A DNA stretch of 32,000 bases from an uncultured bacterium (GTDB lineage: Bacteria; Patescibacteriota; Gracilibacteria; UBA1369; PNNO01), in contig OY969931.1 of assembly GCA_963704705.1 (NCBI GenBank), forward strand, positions 1,080,001 to 1,112,000. The letters run 5' to 3'. Numbering within the stretch: position 1 is the first letter of the stretch; each line of letters begins with the position of its first letter. The notes beneath the pieces are model-generated. The model did no database searches and was not told where the DNA came from. It saw only the letters and a list, made by a program, of their open reading frames with translations. Made by a program: the position numbers and the translations under genes. Of the stretch, positions 3,097 through 23,059 are shown one piece after another.

Positions 3097-4164
3097 ATGA
3101 CAATCATATTCGACCTTGATATTGTTTTAAGACATTTATTACTCATTTTCTTTTCATTCACCACAGCTTTTTTGGTTGCACTACTGTTAGCAAAGCCATT
3201 TTTAAAACTGCTTAAAAAATATAAAATTAATAAACAAATACGCGAAATCGCATCAACCGGTGAAAAAGCAAGCCGTTACCACGAAATGCACAAAAGCAAG
3301 GCAGGCACTCCAACAATGGGTGGCATTTTAATTTGGGGAACAACATTAATTATTGTTCTTGGAAGCCGGGCACTTTCAGCACTCGGCGTTACCGGTAGCT
3401 CTCTTTTAAACAGAAAAGAAACATGGCTGCCAATAGCCACTCTTATTGCCGTAGCATTATTGGGCGCTTTGGATGATTACTTTAATATTCGCGGACTTGG
3501 CAAATCAAAGGGCATAAATATTAAGCCTAAATTTTTCTGGCTAACTATATTTGCATTAATGGGAGGACTTTGGTTCCACTTTAAATTAGGTTTTGATCAG
3601 GTTCATCTGCCTGGTTATGGAGATATAATGATGGGAAGCTGGTATGTTGTATTATTTATGTTTGTGATACTTGCCACTTCAAATGCAGTTAATTTTACCG
3701 ATGGCCTTGATGGACTCGCAGGCGGCTTACTTGTAATTGCGTTTGCTTCATTCAGTGTAATTGCTTTTGCAAACAGTTTATTTATATTATCAGCTTTTTG
3801 TGCTGTTTTAACTGGCGCAAACTTAGGATTCTTATGGCACAATATTCCTCCTGCCAAATTTTATATGGGAGATACAGGCTCGCTTTCAATGGGGGCCACG
3901 CTGGGGGTCATAGCAATGATGACCGACTCCTTTATTGCCCTTATTTTAATTGGATTTATTTTTGTTATAGAAACTCTTTCAATAATTATCCAGATATTTT
4001 CAAAAAAAGTATTCCACAAAAAAGTATTTAAAGTTGCGCCGCTTCATCATCATTACGAATACATCGGCTGGCCTGAGAGCAAAGTTGTAATGCGATTTTG
4101 GATAGTGGGAGCAATATTTGCAATGTTCGGTCTAATTCTATCGCTGGTTGCAATTAACTTTTAA
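3097..4164 (+). CDS. mraY: Phospho-N-acetylmuramoyl-pentapeptide transferase
   Basis: 355-aa polytopic membrane protein with MraY hallmark segments NAVNFTDGLDGLAGG, FYMGDTGSLSMGA and APLHHHYE. Confidence 0.95.
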   Translation: MTIIFDLDIVLRHLLLIFFSFTTAFLVALLLAKPFLKLLKKYKINKQIREIASTGEKASRYHEMHKSKAGTPTMGGILIWGTTLIIVLGSRALSALGVTGSSLLNRKETWLPIATLIAVALLGALDDYFNIRGLGKSKGINIKPKFFWLTIFALMGGLWFHFKLGFDQVHLPGYGDIMMGSWYVVLFMFVILATSNAVNFTDGLDGLAGGLLVIAFASFSVIAFANSLFILSAFCAVLTGANLGFLWHNIPPAKFYMGDTGSLSMGATLGVIAMMTDSFIALILIGFIFVIETLSIIIQIFSKKVFHKKVFKVAPLHHHYEYIGWPESKVVMRFWIVGAIFAMFGLILSLVAINF

Positions 4165-5945
4165 AGTTCAAGTATAAGCGCGCTGTCAGAGACAACAGGA
4201 TTTAATTTTTCATCTACTATTTGCTGAACTTCATCGTCAATTACAGGATCAGCCAATTGCACAACTTCTTTAGTTATTTCCACATCAGGATCAGTTAAAG
4301 AATCTTTAATATCGTTTTCAAGAACTGAATGAGTTGTTTCAGCAAGCTTTACAATTTCAGCATTATCTTCAGCATCAGTTTCAGCAACTTCAACAAGCAC
4401 TTTTGCTGAATTCAAAGTATTAACTTGTTCTCCGATTGCAGCTTCACCTTGAGTTGACTCATTATCATAAGCAATATCAATAACTTTTTCCTGCGCTTTC
4501 ATTAATGTTTCCTGCGCAAGATCATTTTTTTCTTCTTTTAATAAATCCTTTGCTTCAATTATTTTCTCTTCAGCTTCTTTTAATTCTGCGCTATTTTTCT
4601 CCTGGTTGTCAGTAATTACTGTTAATTTTGCTTCTCTTAAAGCTTCCTTTAGTTTATATAGGGGATCGCCAGGCAGCACTACAGCAAAATCTTTTGATCT
4701 ATTTGATAATGCATCATTAAAATATTCTTTAAGTTCTTCGGAACTGCTTACAGTCCCGTTAATTTCACTTATTATTGATTTGAATTCCTGAATTAAAGAA
4801 TCAGCTTCTCTGCTTTTATCTTCATTAATATAAACTGCTGCTTCATTTAATCTCTTAAGTGCAATTTCAATTTTAAGTTTTGCATTTTCTTCAGGATTAC
4901 TTGTTAGCAATAGTTTAGTTGATTCATTTATTTTTTTTGCAGTATATAATGGATTTTCAGGTGTTAACCCGGCTTCTGACTTTGTTTTAACTTTGTTTTC
5001 TTCAACAACATCATTTTTATATTGTTTATCTTTTTCTATATTATCCTCTACCCACTGCTGATCTTCTAAAGAATTAATAGTTCTTTTTGCAACCTGAGGA
5101 CTTTCAAGATCAGCTGCAATAGAATATCCTTCTAAAACCATTTGTTTTTCATCCTGCATGCTTACCTCTATTCTATTATCATAAACTGATACCAATGTTT
5201 GTGCGCTGTTATTAGCCTTTACTTCAAAAGAAGCTCTTTCGGATGCATTTGCTGTAACATCTTTAGCTTCAACTTTAAATGATGATTCTTTTCCAACTAT
5301 ACTAACAACCTGATTCCAAACTCTTCCCTTTTTAACTTCAATCTCAACTTCTGTTTTTGAACGTTTAATTTGATCCTGATACAGTTTTCTTATTCTTAAT
5401 TCCGAATTAGGAGAAAGACGGCTTACGCTATCATCAATATATCTTACTATTGAAGTGCCATTTTCACCTGTTATTAAAGTGTCTCCTTGCTGCAAATACA
5501 TATTAGCTTCCGCCTGTATCGTAACATCATCACGAATTAAATCCACATCACCGCTCACATAAACTATTGTTGTTTGCCTTGCTGCTTTAATAACCGGTAT
5601 ATCTGAAATATAAACAGTTCCAACCATAAATGTAATTACAACAAGCAAAGTTGAAGCAAAAACCTTTTGCCACTGCAATGCGAATGATGATTTGTGGGAC
5701 TTCGTAAAAGAAAGTAAAGTTTGGCCCAAACGAGCTTTAAACACTGAATTTGGTTTTATATCCTCAGCCAATTTTGAAATTATATTTTTTAGTTTTTGCA
5801 AAGATGGATAAAGTTCAAATTTATTTTCATGTTTTATAGAGCTTAATATGTTATGCTTCATCTCAAGTTTTGTTTCAGACTTAAGACAAGGCTTTTTAAG
5901 CTCTTTTAATGAGTTTTCCAGTTTTTTGTATTTATCGATCTCCAT
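4161..5945 (-). CDS. Putative membrane-anchored anti-sigma factor (FecR-like beta domain + long acidic coiled-coil ectodomain)
   Basis: Lies immediately downstream of the ECF sigma gene on the same strand. Single TM helix (FASTLLVVITFMVGTVYI). A FecR-like segment follows (VSGDVDLIRDD...GDTLITGENGTSIVRYIDDSVSRLSPNSELRI). The rest is a long K/E-rich helical region. The anti-sigma role is inferred from gene order. Confidence 0.45.
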   Translation of the reverse strand: MEIDKYKKLENSLKELKKPCLKSETKLEMKHNILSSIKHENKFELYPSLQKLKNIISKLAEDIKPNSVFKARLGQTLLSFTKSHKSSFALQWQKVFASTLLVVITFMVGTVYISDIPVIKAARQTTIVYVSGDVDLIRDDVTIQAEANMYLQQGDTLITGENGTSIVRYIDDSVSRLSPNSELRIRKLYQDQIKRSKTEVEIEVKKGRVWNQVVSIVGKESSFKVEAKDVTANASERASFEVKANNSAQTLVSVYDNRIEVSMQDEKQMVLEGYSIAADLESPQVAKRTINSLEDQQWVEDNIEKDKQYKNDVVEENKVKTKSEAGLTPENPLYTAKKINESTKLLLTSNPEENAKLKIEIALKRLNEAAVYINEDKSREADSLIQEFKSIISEINGTVSSSEELKEYFNDALSNRSKDFAVVLPGDPLYKLKEALREAKLTVITDNQEKNSAELKEAEEKIIEAKDLLKEEKNDLAQETLMKAQEKVIDIAYDNESTQGEAAIGEQVNTLNSAKVLVEVAETDAEDNAEIVKLAETTHSVLENDIKDSLTDPDVEITKEVVQLADPVIDDEVQQIVDEKLNPVVSDSALILEL

Positions 5946-5989
5946 GATTATTCTTGTTCGCTTATATAAACGAAAAGTTTAAGTTTTTG

Positions 5990-6568
5990 TTACTCTATAT
6001 TAGAAATACCCATATCTTCCAAAGTCTGCTTAAGTGCTTTGAGTGCTCTGAATTGCAAAATTCTAACACTTCCCTCGCTTTTTTTAAGTGTTTTACTTAT
6101 TTCTTCATTGGAAAGATCATTAATAAATTTCAAAATCACAACCTGTTGATAACTCTTCTTCAATTTCCCTATAGCATCTTTTAAATTTTCGTTATTTAAA
6201 GTAAGATCCGCCCTTTCAATAGGGTTTGATTCTCTTCGGGTCTCTTTTATTCTCGTATCAAGTGAACTATGTTCGCGTGTGAGCCTGTAATGATCAACAA
6301 CCATATTATGTGCAATTCTAAAAATCCAGGACTTAAAATTGGTATTTTTCTTTTTTCTGTACTTTTTAATATTTTCCCAGGCTTTTAAAAACAATGTTTC
6401 AGTTAAATCTTCAACATCGTCTTTTTTTACTTTAAAAAATATATACCTATATATAGGCGTAACAAAATGATCATAAAGCTTCCCAAAAGCTTCGGCATCA
6501 CCTTTTTGGCTTTGCCTCACTAATTTCTCAACTTCTTCATTGGTATATTTTTCAGTATCTTCGGACAT
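5990..6568 (-). CDS. ECF-type (sigma-70 family, group 4) RNA polymerase sigma factor
   Basis: Region 2 (LYDHFVTPIYRYIFFKV...DVEDLTETLFLKAWENIKKY...FKSWIFRIAHNMVVDHYR) and region 4 HTH (LSNEEISKTLKKSEGSVRILQFRALKALK). The track start at 6619 is a TTG, so I prefer the ATG at 6568 (MSEDTEKY). Confidence 0.85.
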   Translation of the reverse strand: MSEDTEKYTNEEVEKLVRQSQKGDAEAFGKLYDHFVTPIYRYIFFKVKKDDVEDLTETLFLKAWENIKKYRKKKNTNFKSWIFRIAHNMVVDHYRLTREHSSLDTRIKETRRESNPIERADLTLNNENLKDAIGKLKKSYQQVVILKFINDLSNEEISKTLKKSEGSVRILQFRALKALKQTLEDMGISNIE

Positions 6569-6641
6569 AAAAAATGTATTTAAGTTCGCTCCCTGTATAG
6601 GTAAACCAGGAAGATTCAAATTTTTTACAAAATCTTACAGT

Positions 6642-14300: not shown

Positions 14301-14328
14301 TTGACAAATTTAAATAAGTTTGTATAAT
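14301..14328 (+). promoter_or_regulatory. Perfect-consensus sigma-70 promoter driving GC-rich island 1
   Basis: TTGACA (14301-14306), a 16-nt spacer and TATAAT (14323-14328). Predicted transcription start is near 14335, just before GC content jumps. Confidence 0.6.
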
Positions 14329-14334
14329 AAAAGC

Positions 14335-14700
14335 ATCTTTCGTCAGCGGCGCTCATAGTCTTGAGCTGCCCCTGGCGCGTTTACGATCGATGATCCTTAC
14401 AACGCGGCAACCAGCCGCACAACAACCAATCAGAAAGGACGGCGCACAAAAATGGGTCCGTGACACTCAAAAACTTTATGTTGGAGAACCCCTGGCATCA
14501 ACCCCAAACCAAGGAAGGGCCATCACCATGAGCTACTTCAGCTCCAAGTGTCGCAAACGCTAGTGCGGACGCCGATCTACGCCCGGATCGAATCGCGGCC
14601 CGCGGACAAGACGACAAGTCCGACGTCGCGGTAGATCGCAGGGCAGCAGGATGATCGATGGCCGTCCCCCCGAATTTGCTCGGGGGGACGGCCAAACTTT
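14335..14700 (+). ncRNA. Candidate structured non-coding RNA of unknown class (GC-rich island 1)
   Basis: About 58% GC (209/360 hand-counted for 14341-14700) against an AT-rich background. No plus-strand ORF of 60 aa or more. Bounded by a consensus promoter and a 14-bp hairpin terminator. Several complementary segments can be paired by eye, for example 14365-71/14641-47, 14573-80/14631-38, 14603-07/14618-22 and 14376-81/14401-06. I saw no RNase P, tmRNA or SRP hallmark motifs. Confidence 0.55.
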
Positions 14701-14709
14701 TTAAATTTT
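14660..14709 (+). terminator. Strong G/C hairpin terminator closing island 1; abuts the stop codon of convergent tsaC
   Basis: 14-bp perfect stem 14660-14673 / 14680-14693 (ggccgtccccccga / tcggggggacggcc) with loop atttgc, followed by AAACTTTTTAAATTTT. The T-tract is offset by 4 nt, so this is not a textbook terminator. Confidence 0.6.
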
Positions 14710-15380: not shown

Positions 15381-16385
15381 ATGAAACCAAAAGTTTTTAT
15401 AAACGGCTTCGGAAGAATCGGTCGTCTGGTTTTTCGTATAAACCATTTACGCGACAAACTGGATATCGTAGGCATTAATGATCCAAATCCAATTGAAATG
15501 CTTGTACATTTATTAAAGTATGATTCTTCTTATGGACATTTTGACGGCAAAATCGAAATTGTGAATGACAATGAAATGAAAGTAGACGGAAAATCAATAA
15601 AAGTTTATCACACACGCGAACCTCTTGAATTGGAACATGGTGACAATGGCATTGATATAGCAATTGAAGCTACAGGCGCATTCAGAGATCGCGAAGGCGC
15701 AAGCAAGCATCTTCAGGCAGGTGCAAAAAAAGTTTTAATTACAGCTCCGGGTAAAGGTATTGATAGAACTTTAGTGATGGGTGTAAATGAAGGCGATCTA
15801 CATGCTGAAAAAGATCAGATTATTTCAAATGCAAGTTGTACAACAAACTGTATTGCTCCGGTTATTAAAGTTTTGAATGAATCACTTGGAATTGAAAAAG
15901 GATTATTAACTACAATTCATGCAGTTACAACTTCACAAAATATTCTTGATGCTTCAAGCAAAGATTACAGAAGAGCTCGCAGCGCTATTAGCTCAATGAT
16001 TCCAACAACTACCGGAGCTGCTGTTGCGGTTGCTCTTGTTTATCCTGAAATGGAAGGAAAATTAAATGGAATGGCAATCCGCGTACCATTACCTACTGTT
16101 TCGTTGGTGGACTTTGTATTCAACGCAAAAAAAGAGGCTTCAGTTGAAGAAATAAATAAAATTTTAAAAGATGCTGCTGATGGCGGACTTAAAGGAATTT
16201 TAGGATTCAGCAATGAGCCTTTAGTAAGTGTTGATTACAAAGGAACTCACTTTAGCTCGGTTATCGACGGCCTTTCAACTATGGTTGTGGGAGATTTAAT
16301 AAAAGTAATCGCCTGGTACGACAATGAATGGGGCTACAGCGAAAGAACCGTTGATATGGCTGCTTATATTGGAAGCAAGATGTAG
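15381..16385 (+). CDS. gap: Type I glyceraldehyde-3-phosphate dehydrogenase
   Basis: INGFGRIGR NAD-binding motif, active site SNASCTTNC and C-terminal WYDNEWGYS in a 334-aa protein. Confidence 0.95.
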   Translation: MKPKVFINGFGRIGRLVFRINHLRDKLDIVGINDPNPIEMLVHLLKYDSSYGHFDGKIEIVNDNEMKVDGKSIKVYHTREPLELEHGDNGIDIAIEATGAFRDREGASKHLQAGAKKVLITAPGKGIDRTLVMGVNEGDLHAEKDQIISNASCTTNCIAPVIKVLNESLGIEKGLLTTIHAVTTSQNILDASSKDYRRARSAISSMIPTTTGAAVAVALVYPEMEGKLNGMAIRVPLPTVSLVDFVFNAKKEASVEEINKILKDAADGGLKGILGFSNEPLVSVDYKGTHFSSVIDGLSTMVVGDLIKVIAWYDNEWGYSERTVDMAAYIGSKM

Positions 16386-16386
16386 T

Positions 16387-16414
16387 TTGACATCATAAAA
16401 ATTTCGTTTATAAT
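16387..16414 (+). promoter_or_regulatory. Perfect-consensus sigma-70 promoter driving GC-rich island 2
   Basis: TTGACA (16387-16392), a 16-nt spacer and TATAAT (16409-16414). It begins 2 nt after the gap stop codon and has the same hexamers and spacing as the island 1 promoter. Confidence 0.6.
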
Positions 16415-16415
16415 T

Positions 16416-16495
16416 CCAGCAGATTCAATCAAAACATTGAAGCTATCTTTTGATATGCTGGATTGACCTTTGAAAGGTGAAAAGGAGGTATTCGG
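16416..16495 (+). promoter_or_regulatory. Structured 5' leader with hairpin and canonical Shine-Dalgarno sequence
   Basis: Hairpin built from ccagca/tgctgg (16416-21 / 16456-61) plus atcaaaa/ttttgat (16428-34 / 16448-54). AAGGAGG lies at 16482-16488, 7 nt before the ATG at 16496. CCTTT (16467-71) could pair with the AAAGG of the SD (16481-85). Confidence 0.45.
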
Positions 16496-16897
16496 ATGGA
16501 TGCATCGCTGTTAAACAACTTCTCAATGCCCTTAAATTGGTACGCTGAGATCAAGGAGGCTCTCGGCGCCACATTCGAACCCGCAGCTCACTTCCTGGGC
16601 CGCATGATGCCCTTTGGGCCAATCAAGGCCTCGGCAATGCAAGCCATGGGCGTGATCGCCTGGCTCAACTTTCGGGGTCTCACCGTAGAAAACCTCTACG
16701 ATGAACCCAAGTACTTCCAGGAGCTACGCGTCACCATGTGGGTATACGCAATCGGGAACTTCTCGAACGATCCCGAGTCGAGCCAAAAGCTCATCAACCT
16801 GGCCGCGGCCAGCGAGCACATCCTCAAGGGAGTCAAGGACAAGGTCCCGTGGGAAGCCATCGAGCAAAGTCTGAAGGACTTGGCTGTTGCCGCATGA
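16496..16897 (+). CDS. Orphan 133-aa protein of foreign (high-GC) composition, no recognisable family (GC-rich island 2)
   Basis: About 56% GC (234/420 hand-counted for 16501-16920) with strong G/C preference at third codon positions in this frame only (ctc ggc gcc ttc ccc cac ctg ggc ...). Strong SD, own promoter and own terminator. No TM segment, signal peptide, Cys or motif I can recognise. Confidence 0.75.
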   Translation: MDASLLNNFSMPLNWYAEIKEALGATFEPAAHFLGRMMPFGPIKASAMQAMGVIAWLNFRGLTVENLYDEPKYFQELRVTMWVYAIGNFSNDPESSQKLINLAAASEHILKGVKDKVPWEAIEQSLKDLAVAA

Positions 16898-16922
16898 TGC
16901 CCGTCATCACCTTTTGTTCCGG

Positions 16923-16954
16923 CCCGTCTGCAAGTGCAGGCGGGTCGCTTTTTT
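16923..16954 (+). terminator. Canonical intrinsic terminator closing island 2; abuts the stop of the convergent ATPase gene
   Basis: 9-bp stem cccgtctgc / gcaggcggg (16923-31 / 16936-44, one G-U pair) with tetraloop aagt, followed by tcgcTTTTTT (to 16954). Confidence 0.75.
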
Positions 16955-19745
16955 AAATATTTTTTGCAATTTTTTGAGCTGCAAGAATCATTCTTTTTCT
17001 GCCTTTTTTTATTTCAGTTATTCCCAAATAAATAAACCCGGCCATAAATGCAAATATCCAATCAATTAAAGTAAGCGGGCCTGTGTGAAGGAAATGTGAA
17101 ATATATGGATTATATGTGATATTCAACAGGAATATAAATGAAATTAAATACCCTATTAAAAGTCGTTTGTTTGACCATAAATAAGCGGTTGCGATGCTCT
17201 TATTTTCTGCTGTTCTGCGGGCTAAAATATTAAACCACTGAATAAGTACAATCGATAAATAAGTAATTGTTGTGGCTCTTAAATAAACAAGATCATTAGT
17301 CTGAACAGTTACAGGTGAAACACCTTCTCTAAAAAACACTAGTAAGAAATTGCCAAATGCTAAAGTCCCCATTATCAAACCGCTCCATGCAATATCTAAA
17401 AGATTTTTTTTGTTTAATATATGTTCATTTGGATTTCTTGGAGGCGACTTCATAAGCTCTTTATCAGGCGGATCCCAGGTTAAAAATGTTAATGGAAGCA
17501 TCTCGCCCACAAGATCGATAGCAAGAATCTGAACAGCAAGGATAGCCAGCGGATATCCGAGAAGGCCCGTTAATACAAGGCTCAGTAAAACCGCAAAAAG
17601 CTCGCCGCCATTTGAAGTAAGCGATGACATTATTGTTTTTGTAAGATTCCTAAAAATAGTTCTTCCTTCTTCAACTGCTATTACGAGTGTAGCAAAACTG
17701 TCATCAAGCAAAATTATTTCAGCTGAATTTTTTGCAACATCAGTACCGGTTCTGCCCATAGCAACACCTATGTCAGCTTTTTTCAAAGCCGGCGCATCAT
17801 TTACACCATCGCCCGTAACAGCAACTATTTCACCTGCTCGTTTTAAAAGCCCGACAATTCTAAGCTTATCTTCTGGTGAAGTGCGCGCGAAAATTAAATT
17901 GCTGTGAATCAAATTATGAATAAGTTCAATATCTGAAAATTTATGTAGCTCTTTACTTGTTATTACTGTTATTGCTTTATCTTTGGTCCCCTTACCCATG
18001 CCTATTTTCCTTGCTATTGCTTCAGCTGTAAGAGCGTAATCACCGGTAATTATAATAATCCTTATAAATGATTTAAGAGCCATATCAACAGCCTCCTGAA
18101 CTTCTTCACGCGGCGGATCAATCATTGAAATCAGACCAAGCCAGATAAGATTATTTTCTACTTCTTCAATTCCAATGTTTTCTTTGTAATCAAGTAACTC
18201 TTTATATGCGTAGCCAAGATTACGCATTGCAAGCATAGCGTTTTCATCATCCTTATGTTTAATAAGTTCTTTATCTTCATTTGTGATTGGTCGAATATTT
18301 TGGCCATCCCAAATATGTGTACATTTTTCAATAAGAGCCTGCGGAGAACCTTTAACGTAAGCGATATGTTTGCCATCTTTATTTCTTATTGAAGACATTA
18401 ATTTTCTACCGGCATCAAAAGTGAATTCAATTATTTCAGGATATTTTTCTTCAAGCTTTTGCTGATTCACTCCTGCTTTTGCAGCAAGAGTTATTAACGC
18501 TGCTTCAGTTGGGTCGCCTATCGCATACCAGTCCGGATGTTCTTTGTCAGGTTCGCTTATATGTGCATTTGAAGCAAAAACACCTGTTTCAAAAAACAAT
18601 CTAAAATTACTAATTTCCTCTTCTGACAAAGGAGTATTGTTCTCTTTCATTAACTGGCCTTCGGTTTTATATCCAATTCCCGTTACATTGATTTCCTTTC
18701 CACCAATAAACAGCTTTTGCACAGTCATTTCGTTTTTGGTGAGAGTGCCTGTTTTATCGGTACAGATAATATGAGTTGAACCTAAAGTTTCAACTGCTGA
18801 AAGCTTTTTAATTATTGCCTTTTCTTTTGCGAGTCTGCCTGCTGCCAGCGACAGAGCTATAGAAACCTGCGCTGGTAATCCTTCAGGAACACATGACGCG
18901 GCAACTCCCAAAGCAAACAAAAAGGCTTCACGTAGGGTAAAATGCAATACGAGCCCTACAACAAAAAGTATAATACCGATAGCAATCGTTACAAATGTAA
19001 GATTTTTTGCCAGATTGTTTAATTCTTTTTGAAGCGGAGAAAGATCATCTTCGGTTTGCTGACTTAAATTCGCAATTCTGCCAATTTCAGTATTCATACC
19101 TGTAGCAACAACAACTCCTTTTGCATTACCTGTTGCAACAGTGGTTCCCATAAAAGATATATTGTTTCTGTCTCCGAGCCCTACCTGAATTGAAATAGGA
19201 TGTGTAAATTTTTTAACTGGATTTGATTCACCGGTTAATGAAAAGTCATTTGTATAATAATTATGCTCCTCTATAAGACGTACATCTGCAGGAATTGCAT
19301 CCCCTTCTTCCAGTAAAAGAATATCTCCGGGAACAACATCTTCACCATTAATTTCCATCTCGTGGCCATCGCGCACTACTTTTGCTTTGCTTGAAACCAT
19401 TGTTTTAAGCGCGTCCATTGTTTTTTCAGCTTTATATTCCTGAGCAAATCCAATAACAGCATTAATAAACACTATGGAAAACATAATTACAGTATCCCTA
19501 TATTCATTTAAATATAATGAAATAAAACCGGCCACAATCAAAATTATCACCATTAAGTCTTTAAACTGATGGAGAATTTTAAAAAGCAAAGGTTCCTTAT
19601 GTTTAATTGTAAGTTTATTTTGCCCGTAAATATTAATGCGTTCCTTAAATTCAGAGTCGCTCAAACCTTTTACGTTTGTTTCAAGATTTTTCACAACTTC
19701 ATCAATCGTATACTGATAGTAATTTATTCTGTTTTTAACTGGCAT
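16953..19745 (-). CDS. P-type cation-transporting ATPase (P2-type, Ca2+/Mg2+-ATPase-like)
   Basis: 930 aa. Phosphorylation motif ICTDKTGTLT, TGES actuator motif (LTGESNP), hinge motif TGDGVNDAPALKKADIG and PEGLP in TM4, which is typical of P2 ATPases. Ion specificity is inferred only. Confidence 0.85.
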   Translation of the reverse strand: MPVKNRINYYQYTIDEVVKNLETNVKGLSDSEFKERINIYGQNKLTIKHKEPLLFKILHQFKDLMVIILIVAGFISLYLNEYRDTVIMFSIVFINAVIGFAQEYKAEKTMDALKTMVSSKAKVVRDGHEMEINGEDVVPGDILLLEEGDAIPADVRLIEEHNYYTNDFSLTGESNPVKKFTHPISIQVGLGDRNNISFMGTTVATGNAKGVVVATGMNTEIGRIANLSQQTEDDLSPLQKELNNLAKNLTFVTIAIGIILFVVGLVLHFTLREAFLFALGVAASCVPEGLPAQVSIALSLAAGRLAKEKAIIKKLSAVETLGSTHIICTDKTGTLTKNEMTVQKLFIGGKEINVTGIGYKTEGQLMKENNTPLSEEEISNFRLFFETGVFASNAHISEPDKEHPDWYAIGDPTEAALITLAAKAGVNQQKLEEKYPEIIEFTFDAGRKLMSSIRNKDGKHIAYVKGSPQALIEKCTHIWDGQNIRPITNEDKELIKHKDDENAMLAMRNLGYAYKELLDYKENIGIEEVENNLIWLGLISMIDPPREEVQEAVDMALKSFIRIIIITGDYALTAEAIARKIGMGKGTKDKAITVITSKELHKFSDIELIHNLIHSNLIFARTSPEDKLRIVGLLKRAGEIVAVTGDGVNDAPALKKADIGVAMGRTGTDVAKNSAEIILLDDSFATLVIAVEEGRTIFRNLTKTIMSSLTSNGGELFAVLLSLVLTGLLGYPLAILAVQILAIDLVGEMLPLTFLTWDPPDKELMKSPPRNPNEHILNKKNLLDIAWSGLIMGTLAFGNFLLVFFREGVSPVTVQTNDLVYLRATTITYLSIVLIQWFNILARRTAENKSIATAYLWSNKRLLIGYLISFIFLLNITYNPYISHFLHTGPLTLIDWIFAFMAGFIYLGITEIKKGRKRMILAAQKIAKNI

Positions 19746-19791: not shown

Positions 19792-19831
19792 TTGCCAATT
19801 TGGATTAGCACTGTATAATACTTAGTGCTAA
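19792..19831 (+). promoter_or_regulatory. hrcA promoter with embedded CIRCE operator
   Basis: TTGCCA (19792-97), a 16-nt spacer and TATAAT (19814-19). CIRCE-like inverted repeat TTAGCACTG-N9-TAGTGCTAA (19805-19831), compared with the consensus TTAGCACTC-N9-GAGTGCTAA. The -10 hexamer lies in the CIRCE spacer. Confidence 0.8.
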
Positions 19832-21063: not shown

Positions 21064-21104
21064 TTGACCTGAATAATTTAGCACTCTATAATAGAGAGTG
21101 CTAA
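21064..21104 (+). promoter_or_regulatory. dnaK promoter with perfect CIRCE operator
   Basis: TTGACC (21064-69), a 17-nt spacer and TATAAT (21087-92). Perfect CIRCE TTAGCACTC-tataataga-GAGTGCTAA (21078-21104). Confidence 0.9.
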
Positions 21105-21136: not shown

Positions 21137-23059
21137 ATGAGTAAAATATTAGGAATCGATCTAGGTACAACAAACTGTTGTATGGCAATAATGGAGGGCG
21201 GAGAGCCTACTGTTATTTCAAACGCGGAAGGAAATCGCACTACACCTTCAATGGTTGCTGTTAAAGACGGAGAACGTCTCGTTGGGGTTGCAGCAAAAAG
21301 GCAATCCGTAACAAATGGTGAAAATACAATTTTTTCTGCTAAGCGTTTTATAGGGCACACATACGATGAAGCAAAAAAAGATATTGAAAGAATGCCTTTT
21401 AAATGTGCTAAAGGAAAATCAGGAGAAGTTGAAATGGTTCTTGACGGAAAACAAAGAAGACCAGCTGAAATCGCGGCAATGATTCTTCAGAAATTAAAAG
21501 CGGATGCTGAAAAATATACAGGAGAAACTATTACAAAAGCAGTAATCACTGTACCTGCCTACTTCAATGATTCTCAGCGTCAGGCAACAAAAGACGCAGG
21601 TAAAATCGCTGGACTTGAAGTTGAAAGAATCATAAATGAACCAACTGCTGCTGCACTTGCTTATGGAATGGATAAAAAAGGTGCTGATAAAAAAGTGGCT
21701 GTTTATGATTTGGGGGGAGGAACTTTTGATATCTCAATTCTTGAAATTGCTGATGTTGAAGGAGAAAAACAATTTGAAGTTTTAAGTACAAACGGAAACA
21801 CACAATTGGGTGGTGATGATTTTGACCAGAAGATTATTGACTGGCTTGTTGATGAATTTAAAAAAGATCAGGGCGTTGATTTAAGTAAAGATAAAATCGC
21901 ATTACAACGTCTTAAAGATGCAGCTGAAAAAGCTAAAATTGAGCTTTCATCTCAACACGAAACAGAAGTTAACATTCCGTTTATTACTTCTGATTCAAGT
22001 GGCCCAAAACACTTAAACTTAAAGTTAAGCCGCGCTAAAATGGAAGATTTGTTTGCTGATTTAATTGAAGCAACTACTGATCCATGCAGAAAAGCAATGG
22101 ACGATGCAAAAACTTATGCATCAGATATTGATGAAGTAATTTTGGTTGGTGGAATGACTCGTATGCCTGCTGTTCAGGAAAAAGTTAAAGAAATATTCGG
22201 TAAGGAACCTCATCAGGGGTTAAATCCGGATGAAGTTGTTGCACTTGGTGCAGCACTTCAGGGTGGAGTTTTACAGGGAGATGTAAAAGATATTCTGCTT
22301 CTTGATGTTACTCCGCTTACTCTTTCAATTGAAACTTTGGGTGGTGTTTCAACTCCAATGATTGAACGAAACACAACAATCCCAACAAGCAAATCTCAGG
22401 TTTATTCTACTGCTGCTGATAATCAAACTAGTGTTGAGGTTCATATTATGCAGGGTGAAAGACCTATGGCTGCTGACAATAAGTCTCTTGGAAGATTTAT
22501 TCTGGATGGTATTCCGCCAGCGCCAAGAGGTGTGCCCCAAATTGAAGTTACGTTTGATATTGATGCAAACGGAATTTTAAATGTTAAAGCTCTTGATAAG
22601 GCTACAAGTAAAGAACAACATATTACAATCAGCGGAAGCTCAAATATAAGTGATGATGAAATCGAAAAAATGAGAAAAGAAGCCGAGGCTCATGCTGAAG
22701 AAGACAAGAAAAAGAAAGAAGGAATCGAAGTAAGAAATAAAGCTGAATCATTGGTACTTCAAAGTGAAAAAACACTTAAAGATGCAGGTGATAAAGTTGG
22801 CGATGACATTAAAAAACCGGTTCAGGAAAAAATAGATGAACTTAAGAAAATTCTTGAAAATAAGGAAGCTTCAAACGATGAAATCCAGAAAGGCTACGAT
22901 GGTTTAAGTGAAGAAATTCAAAAGGTCGGAGCACAAATGTATCAACAGGCTGCTCCTCAGGAAGAAGACGGTGTGAAAGTAAAAGAAAATGTAAATGAAG
23001 AAGCACCAAAGGAAGAAGAAGCTGTTGAAGGCGAAGTTGTAGATGAAAAAAATGAATAA
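21137..23059 (+). CDS. dnaK: Molecular chaperone DnaK (Hsp70)
   Basis: [25 protein letters not shown] and [11 protein letters not shown] motifs. The track start at 21098 is an alternative-start artefact lying inside CIRCE; the ATG at 21137 gives the canonical N-terminus. Confidence 0.97.

Follow-up and report, generated by a model that had tools for sequence, protein, structure and literature searches.

A GC-rich orphan gene with a lone Shine-Dalgarno sequence, apparently as old as its neighbours, in an AT-rich uncultured bacterium

Results

The ORF133 locus and its expression signals

The gene studied here, ORF133, is a GC-rich open reading frame (ORF) in a 32,000-nucleotide stretch of contig OY969931.1 (assembly GCA_963704705.1, positions 1,080,001 to 1,112,000 of the forward strand) from an uncultured member of the Gracilibacteria; we refer to this whole stretch as the window. 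The coding sequence (CDS), at 16496..16897 (+), specifies an acidic orphan protein of 133 residues that is predicted to be all-alpha, and its ratio of nonsynonymous to synonymous divergence (dN/dS) and codon-position pattern mark it as coding. Three lineages were compared, the window, L002 and L005/L010, which together represent at least 12 independent assemblies. All three share the gene order gap, ORF133, ATPase (-), hrcA, grpE, dnaK, and since both junctions of the ORF133 segment recur in the independent assemblies, they are not chimeric.

The signals around ORF133 suggest an autonomously expressed gene with its own conserved promoter, Shine-Dalgarno (SD) sequence and terminator, in agreement with the original prediction. 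A promoter matching the consensus at 12 of 12 positions, with the -35 hexamer TTGACA at 16387..16392 (+) and the -10 hexamer TATAAT at 16409..16414 (+), begins at the second base past the gap stop codon (16383-16385), where a perfect TTGACA-N16-TATAAT had been reported. Both hexamers are 100% conserved in the three lineages; the spacer between them is fixed at 16 nt in length, with an identity of only 56-75%. A scan of 32 kb for perfect promoters (TTGACA-N15-19-TATAAT) returned two, against 0.05 expected. Since TTGACA/TATAAT-like promoters also serve native genes, for example upstream of hrcA and dnaK, the ORF133 promoter is of a native type and differs by being a perfect match. Transcription would start near 16421.

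The 5' leader (16421..16481, +) is AT-rich, at 38% GC, and contains small hairpins, among them a palindrome, TTCAAT-N6-ATTGAA (16424-16441), and GCUAUC-UUUU-GAUAUGC (16442-16458), the second hairpin, in which one pair is compensated. With the 21-nt insertion of L005 left out, leader identity between lineages is ~90%, compared to 73-76% at third codon positions. On its own the leader folds no better than shuffled sequences (z -0.15). Its palindromes and motifs do not recur in the window beyond chance, and a shared operator was rejected on this basis.

The SD sequence, AAGGAGG at 16482..16488 (+), lies 7 nt before the ATG. SD strength was scored as the predicted energy of the duplex with the canonical anti-SD, and on this scale ORF133 reaches -12.9 kcal/mol, while the 26 other ORFs of the window score -6.6 kcal/mol or weaker and none of 14 ORFs from L013, the nearest GTDB relative, which lacks ORF133, has a strong SD. 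The earlier claim that this is the only SD to be found therefore stands for the DNA examined (1 of 27 window ORFs and 0 of 14 in L013). Upstream of native genes the sequence is rich in A and carries no SD. All lineages keep the SD core GGAGG and its 7-nt distance to the ATG, including L005/L010, in which an A/C-rich insertion of 21 nt lies directly 5' of the SD (L005 ~336-356; columns 103-123 of alignment A1).

Downstream of the CDS, a poorly conserved 3' untranslated spacer (16898..16919, +; 55-77% identity) leads into an intrinsic terminator at 16920..16954 (+). The terminator had been described as a textbook one with a 9-bp stem, a tetraloop and a T6 run; the hairpin (16920-16947), the 4-nt loop and the T6 run (16949-16954) were all found, but the stem has 12 pairs, and the figure of nine counts the G-C pairs only. 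It is among the two strongest terminators in the 16 kb scanned, its identity between lineages is 89-91%, and all changes retain pairing via G-U. The T-run overlaps the stop codon (16953-16955) of the convergent ATPase gene. The hexamers, SD, SD spacing and hairpin appear to be functional, having been conserved while the promoter spacer and the 3' untranslated region drifted.

ORF133 is a translated gene of atypical composition

The GC content of ORF133 is 0.557 (55.7%), and at the first, second and third codon positions (GC1/2/3) it is 0.55/0.38/0.74, compared to 0.50/0.37/0.26 in gap and 0.47/0.34/0.26 in the ATPase gene. GC1 and GC2 are thus host-like, and the deviation lies almost wholly in GC3. 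The leader is not GC-rich, so the GC-richness is confined to the coding body and the terminator. The codons used are the host's rarest (AAG 8/8, ATC 7/7); CTC, CCC, GTC, TCG and GCC each make up at most 6% in host genes.

Across the three lineages dN/dS is 0.20-0.34 for ORF133, and 0.05-0.07 for gap and the ATPase gene; purifying selection on ORF133 is looser than on its neighbours. Substitutions fall on the three codon positions in the ratios 13/14/32, 15/16/36 and 20/19/36 (chi-square p 0.003, 0.002 and 0.026), and the 402 nt of the CDS contain zero indels and zero stops in the three lineages, while the leader has indels of 21 nt and 1 nt. The low dN/dS, the excess of third-position substitutions and the indel-free CDS therefore establish ORF133 as a translated gene under purifying selection, and the original reading of its G/C third-position bias as real coding signal was borne out; no frame-disrupting change was found among the homologues in the three lineages.

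The same region might instead hold a GC-rich structured non-coding RNA whose frame is free of stops by chance. GC-rich sequence is poor in stop codons, an antisense ORF of 153 residues crosses the region in L002, and a probable RNA gene of this kind (island 1, described below) lies 2 kb away. However, a 3-base period in the + frame is shown by both composition and substitutions, dN/dS is well below 1, the absence of indels in 402 nt differs from the several non-triplet indels in ~365 nt of island 1, the SD is held at a conserved 7-nt spacing, and the window lacks an intact counterpart of the antisense ORF. We consider it highly improbable that ORF133 is not a gene.

The antisense ORF (L002 6028-6489, -) occurs only in L002, and stops interrupt its counterpart in the window. 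A conserved antisense gene over ORF133 was therefore rejected; GC islands in AT-rich genomes yield spurious long ORFs, and this one is a by-product of the GC-rich sequence. An exact 14-nt direct repeat, GCCGCATGATGCCC, is present at 16599-16612 (codons 35-39 of the CDS) and at 16889-16902, across the stop codon. It is exact in the window lineage only, the second site reading GCTGCATGAAG in the other lineages, and may be due to chance.

The ORF133 protein belongs to a clade-restricted orphan family

The predicted protein has a mass of 14.9 kDa, a pI of 5.1 and no Cys, as had been noted, and is enriched in Ala, Met and Trp relative to host proteins. AlphaFold2 modelled 5-7 helices with a predicted local distance difference test (pLDDT) score of 45.8 from the three-sequence alignment and 50.5 from the single sequence. 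The protein is probably all-helical, in keeping with the original impression of a helical protein, with the helices predicted at low confidence. Using the better, still weak model, a Foldseek search of the PDB gave nothing usable (E > 1).

No match was found in Pfam, NCBIfam, PHROGs or PADLOC, and searches of the PDB by sequence and profile gave best E-values of 0.11-0.34. A collection of 5.8 billion clusters contained exactly three for ORF133, namely its own, P0002 (83% identity) and P0003 (80%), all of 133 residues, and when 1.84 billion representatives were searched exhaustively with a profile, nothing but its own cluster came back. Scanning GTDB genomes and contigs from metagenomes and viruses for the protein pattern added no further lineages, and an exact DNA scan of metagenome contigs with the conserved leader found nothing. 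The assertion that no motif or family can be assigned thus held through profile and structure searches alike, and ORF133 appears to define a new, clade-restricted orphan protein family.

The C-terminus reads LAVAA, LAIAA and LAVAA in the three lineages. This conserved A-V/I-A-A end resembles ssrA-type tails, the non-polar A-x-A-A ends by which the ClpXP protease recognises its substrates; by analogy, it hints at rapid proteolytic turnover of the ORF133 protein.

ORF133 appears to be as old as its flanking genes

Synonymous divergence (dS) among the lineages is 0.47-0.51 for ORF133, 0.39-0.53 for gap and 0.43-0.58 for the ATPase gene. The equal dS of ORF133 and its flanks, together with its position in the same slot in three lineages, shows that the gene was present in their common ancestor and has been diverging there as long as its neighbours. 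Within the GTDB species set the nearest genome is L013 ('bacterium isolate AUK087'), with a gap identity of 73% and the order tsaC, gap, an unrelated 165-residue ORF, hrcA, grpE, dnaK. Its equivalent region has no GC island, no ATPase gene and no ORF133, and the 165-residue ORF was rejected as a homologue since it has no homology to ORF133. Either L013 has lost the gene, therefore, or it was gained after the split from L013, at a time when the three lineages had yet to separate. Its absence from L013 fits the original description of an accessory gene.

The P-type ATPase gene (16953-19745, -), of the P2-type cation class, is likewise absent from the L013 region, yet its GC3 is host-like at 0.26. 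If the ATPase gene and ORF133 arrived together, only ORF133 kept its GC-rich composition.

No tRNA, integrase or flanking repeats were found at the ORF133 borders, and no paralog in the window; the cassette fits exactly between two stop codons. The original prediction had called for a search for the donor lineage, and no donor homologue was found among ~15 billion proteins, GTDB genomes, metagenome contigs or viral contigs.

The GC-ending codons are maintained

An atypical codon composition relative to the neighbouring genes was confirmed (GC3 0.74 vs 0.26), yet it is not decaying at host rates. To polarise substitutions we took the majority base in the three-taxon tree as the ancestral state. 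At all third positions of ORF133, 26 changes run from G or C to A or T and 15 in the opposite direction, whereas host rates predict 43:5 (binomial p 7e-6). The strictly synonymous changes number 13 GC>AT and 8 AT>GC, against an expected 28.9:3.2 (p 5.5e-4). Per site, the synonymous GC>AT rate is 0.19 in ORF133 vs 0.42 in host genes (p 3e-4), and the AT>GC rate is 0.42 vs 0.17 (p 0.009). The implied equilibrium GC3 is 0.67 from all third positions and ~0.69 from synonymous sites, compared to 0.27-0.32 in the flanking genes. As a guard against parsimony mis-polarising parallel changes, the host process was simulated on the same tree and scored alike; across the parameter grid an AT>GC fraction as high as that of ORF133 arose in 0-1.3% of runs. 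The GC-rich codons of ORF133 are old and actively maintained, and are not the residue of a donor. Biased gene conversion, or any other process blind to where genes begin, would hardly be expected to spare the leader in this way.

These data bear on the origin first proposed for ORF133, that of a recently acquired foreign gene from a high-GC donor whose composition has not yet ameliorated. Its GC3 and codon usage are atypical, and its absence from L013 means that it was gained, or lost there, at some point. The shared slot in three lineages with a dS of ~0.5, equal to that of the flanks, speaks against a recent arrival, as do a direction of synonymous change that misfits decay at host rates, the lack of any donor homologue and borders that carry no mobility scars. 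A high-GC donor is likewise insufficient to account for the composition, given that GC3 is not relaxing. The claim of recent acquisition is thus very unlikely to be correct.

The ORF133 mRNA is predicted to be stably folded

The minimum free energy (MFE) of the CDS was compared with that of synonymous-codon permutations, which keep both the protein and the codon usage. The CDS of the three lineages gave z-scores of -1.6, -2.8 and -3.8, while two segments of gap gave +0.8; the full ORF133 transcript has a z-score of -2.9 against dinucleotide shuffles. Searches for a known RNA family in the region returned no Rfam 15 match at the gathering threshold, only chance-level hits at E <= 10, and nothing with ARAGORN, so this possibility was rejected.

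The initiation region of ORF133 is predicted to be among the most structured in the window. From -30 to +30 its folding energy is -11.5 kcal/mol vs -5.8 +/- 2.8 kcal/mol for other genes, and from -20 to +80 it is -26.4 vs -14.1 +/- 4.9 kcal/mol. The predicted probability that the SD is unpaired is 0.17, 0.02 and 0.05 in the full mRNAs of the three lineages and 0.33-0.68 in the first 150 nt. This pattern would fit co-transcriptional or conditional initiation, and would equally fit a generic effect of a C-rich CDS.

In the consensus fold the SD region (GGAGGUAU, 16484-16491) pairs with GUACUUCC (16710-16717, codons 72-75). In L005 one pair has gone from A-U to G-C, a compensatory change that also replaces Tyr73 by His, and in L002 one pair is broken. 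It could represent sequestration of the SD, although long-range pairs in MFE predictions are unreliable.

The predicted occlusion of the SD is one of several features that could point to specialised translational control, in which translation would depend on a certain state of the ribosome or the tRNAs, owing to the lone SD, to the rare GC-ending codons or to both. Versions of this idea include ribosomes with an exposed anti-SD, as for rpsU in Flavobacterium, and melting of the mRNA by stress or temperature. ORF133 has the only strong SD seen in an SD-poor clade, uses the host's rarest codons and lies close to the hrcA-grpE-dnaK genes, which are controlled by CIRCE (controlling inverted repeat of chaperone expression) operators; a lone regulatory SD also has precedent in SD-blind Bacteroidia (PMC9976891, PMC13000453, PMC7797042). 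However, the product is not bS21 (it is acidic, has 133 residues and lacks a Pfam match), the leader is free of CIRCE and of known thermometer motifs, folding of the first 150 nt leaves the SD fairly open, and its occlusion in the full mRNA could be the generic effect mentioned above. Control of this kind strikes us as improbable.

A GC-rich, probably non-coding transcript lies nearby

The only other perfect promoter in the window (14301-14328, +; also TTGACA-N16-TATAAT) opens a second GC-rich segment, island 1, at 14301-14703 (+; 58% GC; L002 counterpart 3795-4208), which ends in the strongest terminator found (14659-14694, +). Island 1 has no conserved ORF, and several non-triplet indels separate the window and L002 over ~365 nt; its 3' half is almost invariant between them. 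The fold has a z-score of -5.6, none of the 92 predicted pairs is lost between the two lineages, and four double compensatory changes fall in a single 14-bp hairpin. There was no Rfam match, an exact DNA scan of viral contigs with the island 1 core found nothing, and the same slot in L013 is without the island. To judge from these sequence comparisons, island 1 is probably an undescribed structured RNA of ~365 nt.

Island 1 and ORF133 share no sequence, and homology between them was rejected. Pairing between island 1 and the ORF133 mRNA was also rejected, the predicted complementarity being no better than in shuffles. The two units do share a design, and island 1 shows that a consensus promoter, a GC-rich body and a strong terminator together characterise RNAs of this genome that are selected for structure or stability. 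The common design therefore supports a reading of ORF133 at the mRNA level, and island 1, promoter-matched and at a distance of 2 kb, may form one high-expression class with ORF133.

Other features of the window

Two perfect CIRCE operators (TTAGCACT-N11-AGTGCTAA) are located at 19805-19831 and 21078-21104 (+), upstream of hrcA and dnaK respectively, where none would be expected by chance (0 expected). Each CIRCE spacer contains a TATAAT -10 box. The GTG at 21098 that the mechanical ORF call assigns as the dnaK start falls inside the second operator, and the real start is probably the ATG at 21138.

On the opposite strand, at 4161-6619 (-), a gene for an extracytoplasmic function (ECF)-type sigma factor (Sigma70_r2/r4) adjoins one for a 594-residue protein with FecR and DUF5667 domains, an arrangement that resembles a sigma/anti-sigma pair. 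LytR-CpsA-Psr and SLH-domain proteins are also encoded. Together with the sigma/FecR genes, they hint at a Gram-positive-like or candidate-phyla envelope.

Discussion

On balance, we favour the view that ORF133 is an old gene, restricted to its clade and autonomously expressed, that selection preserves its GC-rich, structured mRNA, and that this mRNA requires an SD in a clade otherwise poor in them. We hold this to be somewhat more probable than all other accounts taken together. ORF133 would be a monocistronic gene for a small, acidic and probably all-helical cytosolic protein, found in one narrow clade of uncultivated, AT-rich, SD-poor bacteria. It would have entered, or arisen in, the gap-to-ATPase slot before the three lineages split, and would since have been inherited vertically under purifying selection. 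Its expression would be unlike that of its neighbours, depending on a consensus sigma-70 promoter, a conserved 75-nt leader, a canonical SD and a strong terminator. The most likely reason for the persistence of the GC-ending codons would be mRNA-level selection for a GC-rich, stably folded transcript. The SD, in turn, would be needed since the unstructured, A-rich initiation regions that serve native genes are not available to a transcript of this kind.

Several points count against this view. It draws on three lineages only, and the polarised-substitution test on 21-41 changes. The duplex energies were scored against the canonical anti-SD, and the window contains no rRNA or ribosomal protein genes. 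The AlphaFold2 models of the protein are poor (pLDDT 46-50). One particular conserved RNA fold has weak support, with an alifold covariation term of +0.59 and with 8 compensated pairs (3.8 in shuffles) set against ~25 broken cells, in a structure that was itself derived from the same three sequences. Synonymous sites of ORF133 vary at 35%, compared to 32-38% in host genes, and are not significantly clustered, so frozen synonymous blocks were rejected. The constraint is compositional, and could act through codon choice and not through folding. Taken together, the constraint acts on composition and overall stability, and not on a fixed RNA architecture.

The same counts are relevant to a dual-function RNA, that is, a structured regulatory or scaffold RNA that also encodes a protein and whose RNA role maintains the GC content. 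In its favour, each of the three lineages has a CDS that folds more stably than its synonymous permutations, compensated pairs outnumber those in shuffles (8 vs 3.8), and the nearby island 1, of the same promoter and terminator design, is a probable non-coding structured RNA. The many broken pairs, the lack of net covariation energy, synonymous sites without frozen blocks beyond those of host genes, the absence of an Rfam match and a complementarity to island 1 no better than in shuffles all argue the other way. We think it doubtful that ORF133 has such a second role.

A bolder form of the translational-control idea combines the lone SD, the rarest codons and the folded mRNA into a dedicated translational switch kept by selection, to which we assign only a small chance. 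If it were true, translation of the ORF133 mRNA would require ribosomes whose anti-SD is free, or conditions under which the mRNA melts, and the principle of Flavobacterium rpsU would extend to a non-ribosomal effector outside the Bacteroidia.

Returning to the favoured account, in which mRNA-level selection keeps an old gene GC-rich, what is new is the age and active maintenance of a foreign-looking codon composition, together with its link to the only SD observed in an SD-poor lineage. An unusual composition is commonly taken as a sign of recent horizontal transfer, and ORF133 offers a concrete, testable counter-example: it looks foreign, yet shares the age of its housekeeping neighbours and keeps its synonymous sites GC-rich against a strong AT-biased background. 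This points to mRNA-level selection or to a special mode of translation in a poorly known SD-poor lineage. The locus also adds a putative new clade-restricted protein family and, near it, a candidate structured RNA with no Rfam match, both of which appear to be built for high expression.

Comparison with known systems

In the classical picture of Lawrence and Ochman, a horizontally acquired ORFan islet undergoes amelioration towards the composition of its host. ORF133 resembles such an islet in its atypical composition, patchy distribution (it is absent from L013), lack of outside homologues and self-contained signals. It differs in being as old as its flanks, in having a GC3 near its own equilibrium (~0.67-0.69), and in the absence of scars and of a donor.

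Dual-function small RNAs that also code for protein, such as SgrS/SgrT, RNAIII/hld and SR1/SR1P, carry ORFs of under ~60 residues. ORF133 is similar to them as a terminator-ended, structured transcript with an ORF and predicted strong transcription, but its ORF is far longer (133 residues) and fills most of the transcript.

The bldA-TTA system of Streptomyces is a translational switch that depends on a rare codon and its tRNA. ORF133 shares with it a maintained enrichment of the host's rarest codons; its bias, however, spans all codon families as a general GC3 effect and is not limited to one codon, and no dedicated tRNA is known.

In the SD-blind lineage of Flavobacterium johnsoniae a single gene, rpsU, which encodes bS21, is preceded by a strong SD (PMC9976891, PMC13000453, PMC7797042). 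The product of ORF133 is not bS21 or another ribosomal protein (there is no Ribosomal_S21 match), and its host uses TTGACA/TATAAT-type promoters and shows no sign of belonging to the Bacteroidia. The likeness lies in the SD pattern: a lone, strong and conserved SD in front of one gene, among other genes that are SD-less and A-rich upstream.

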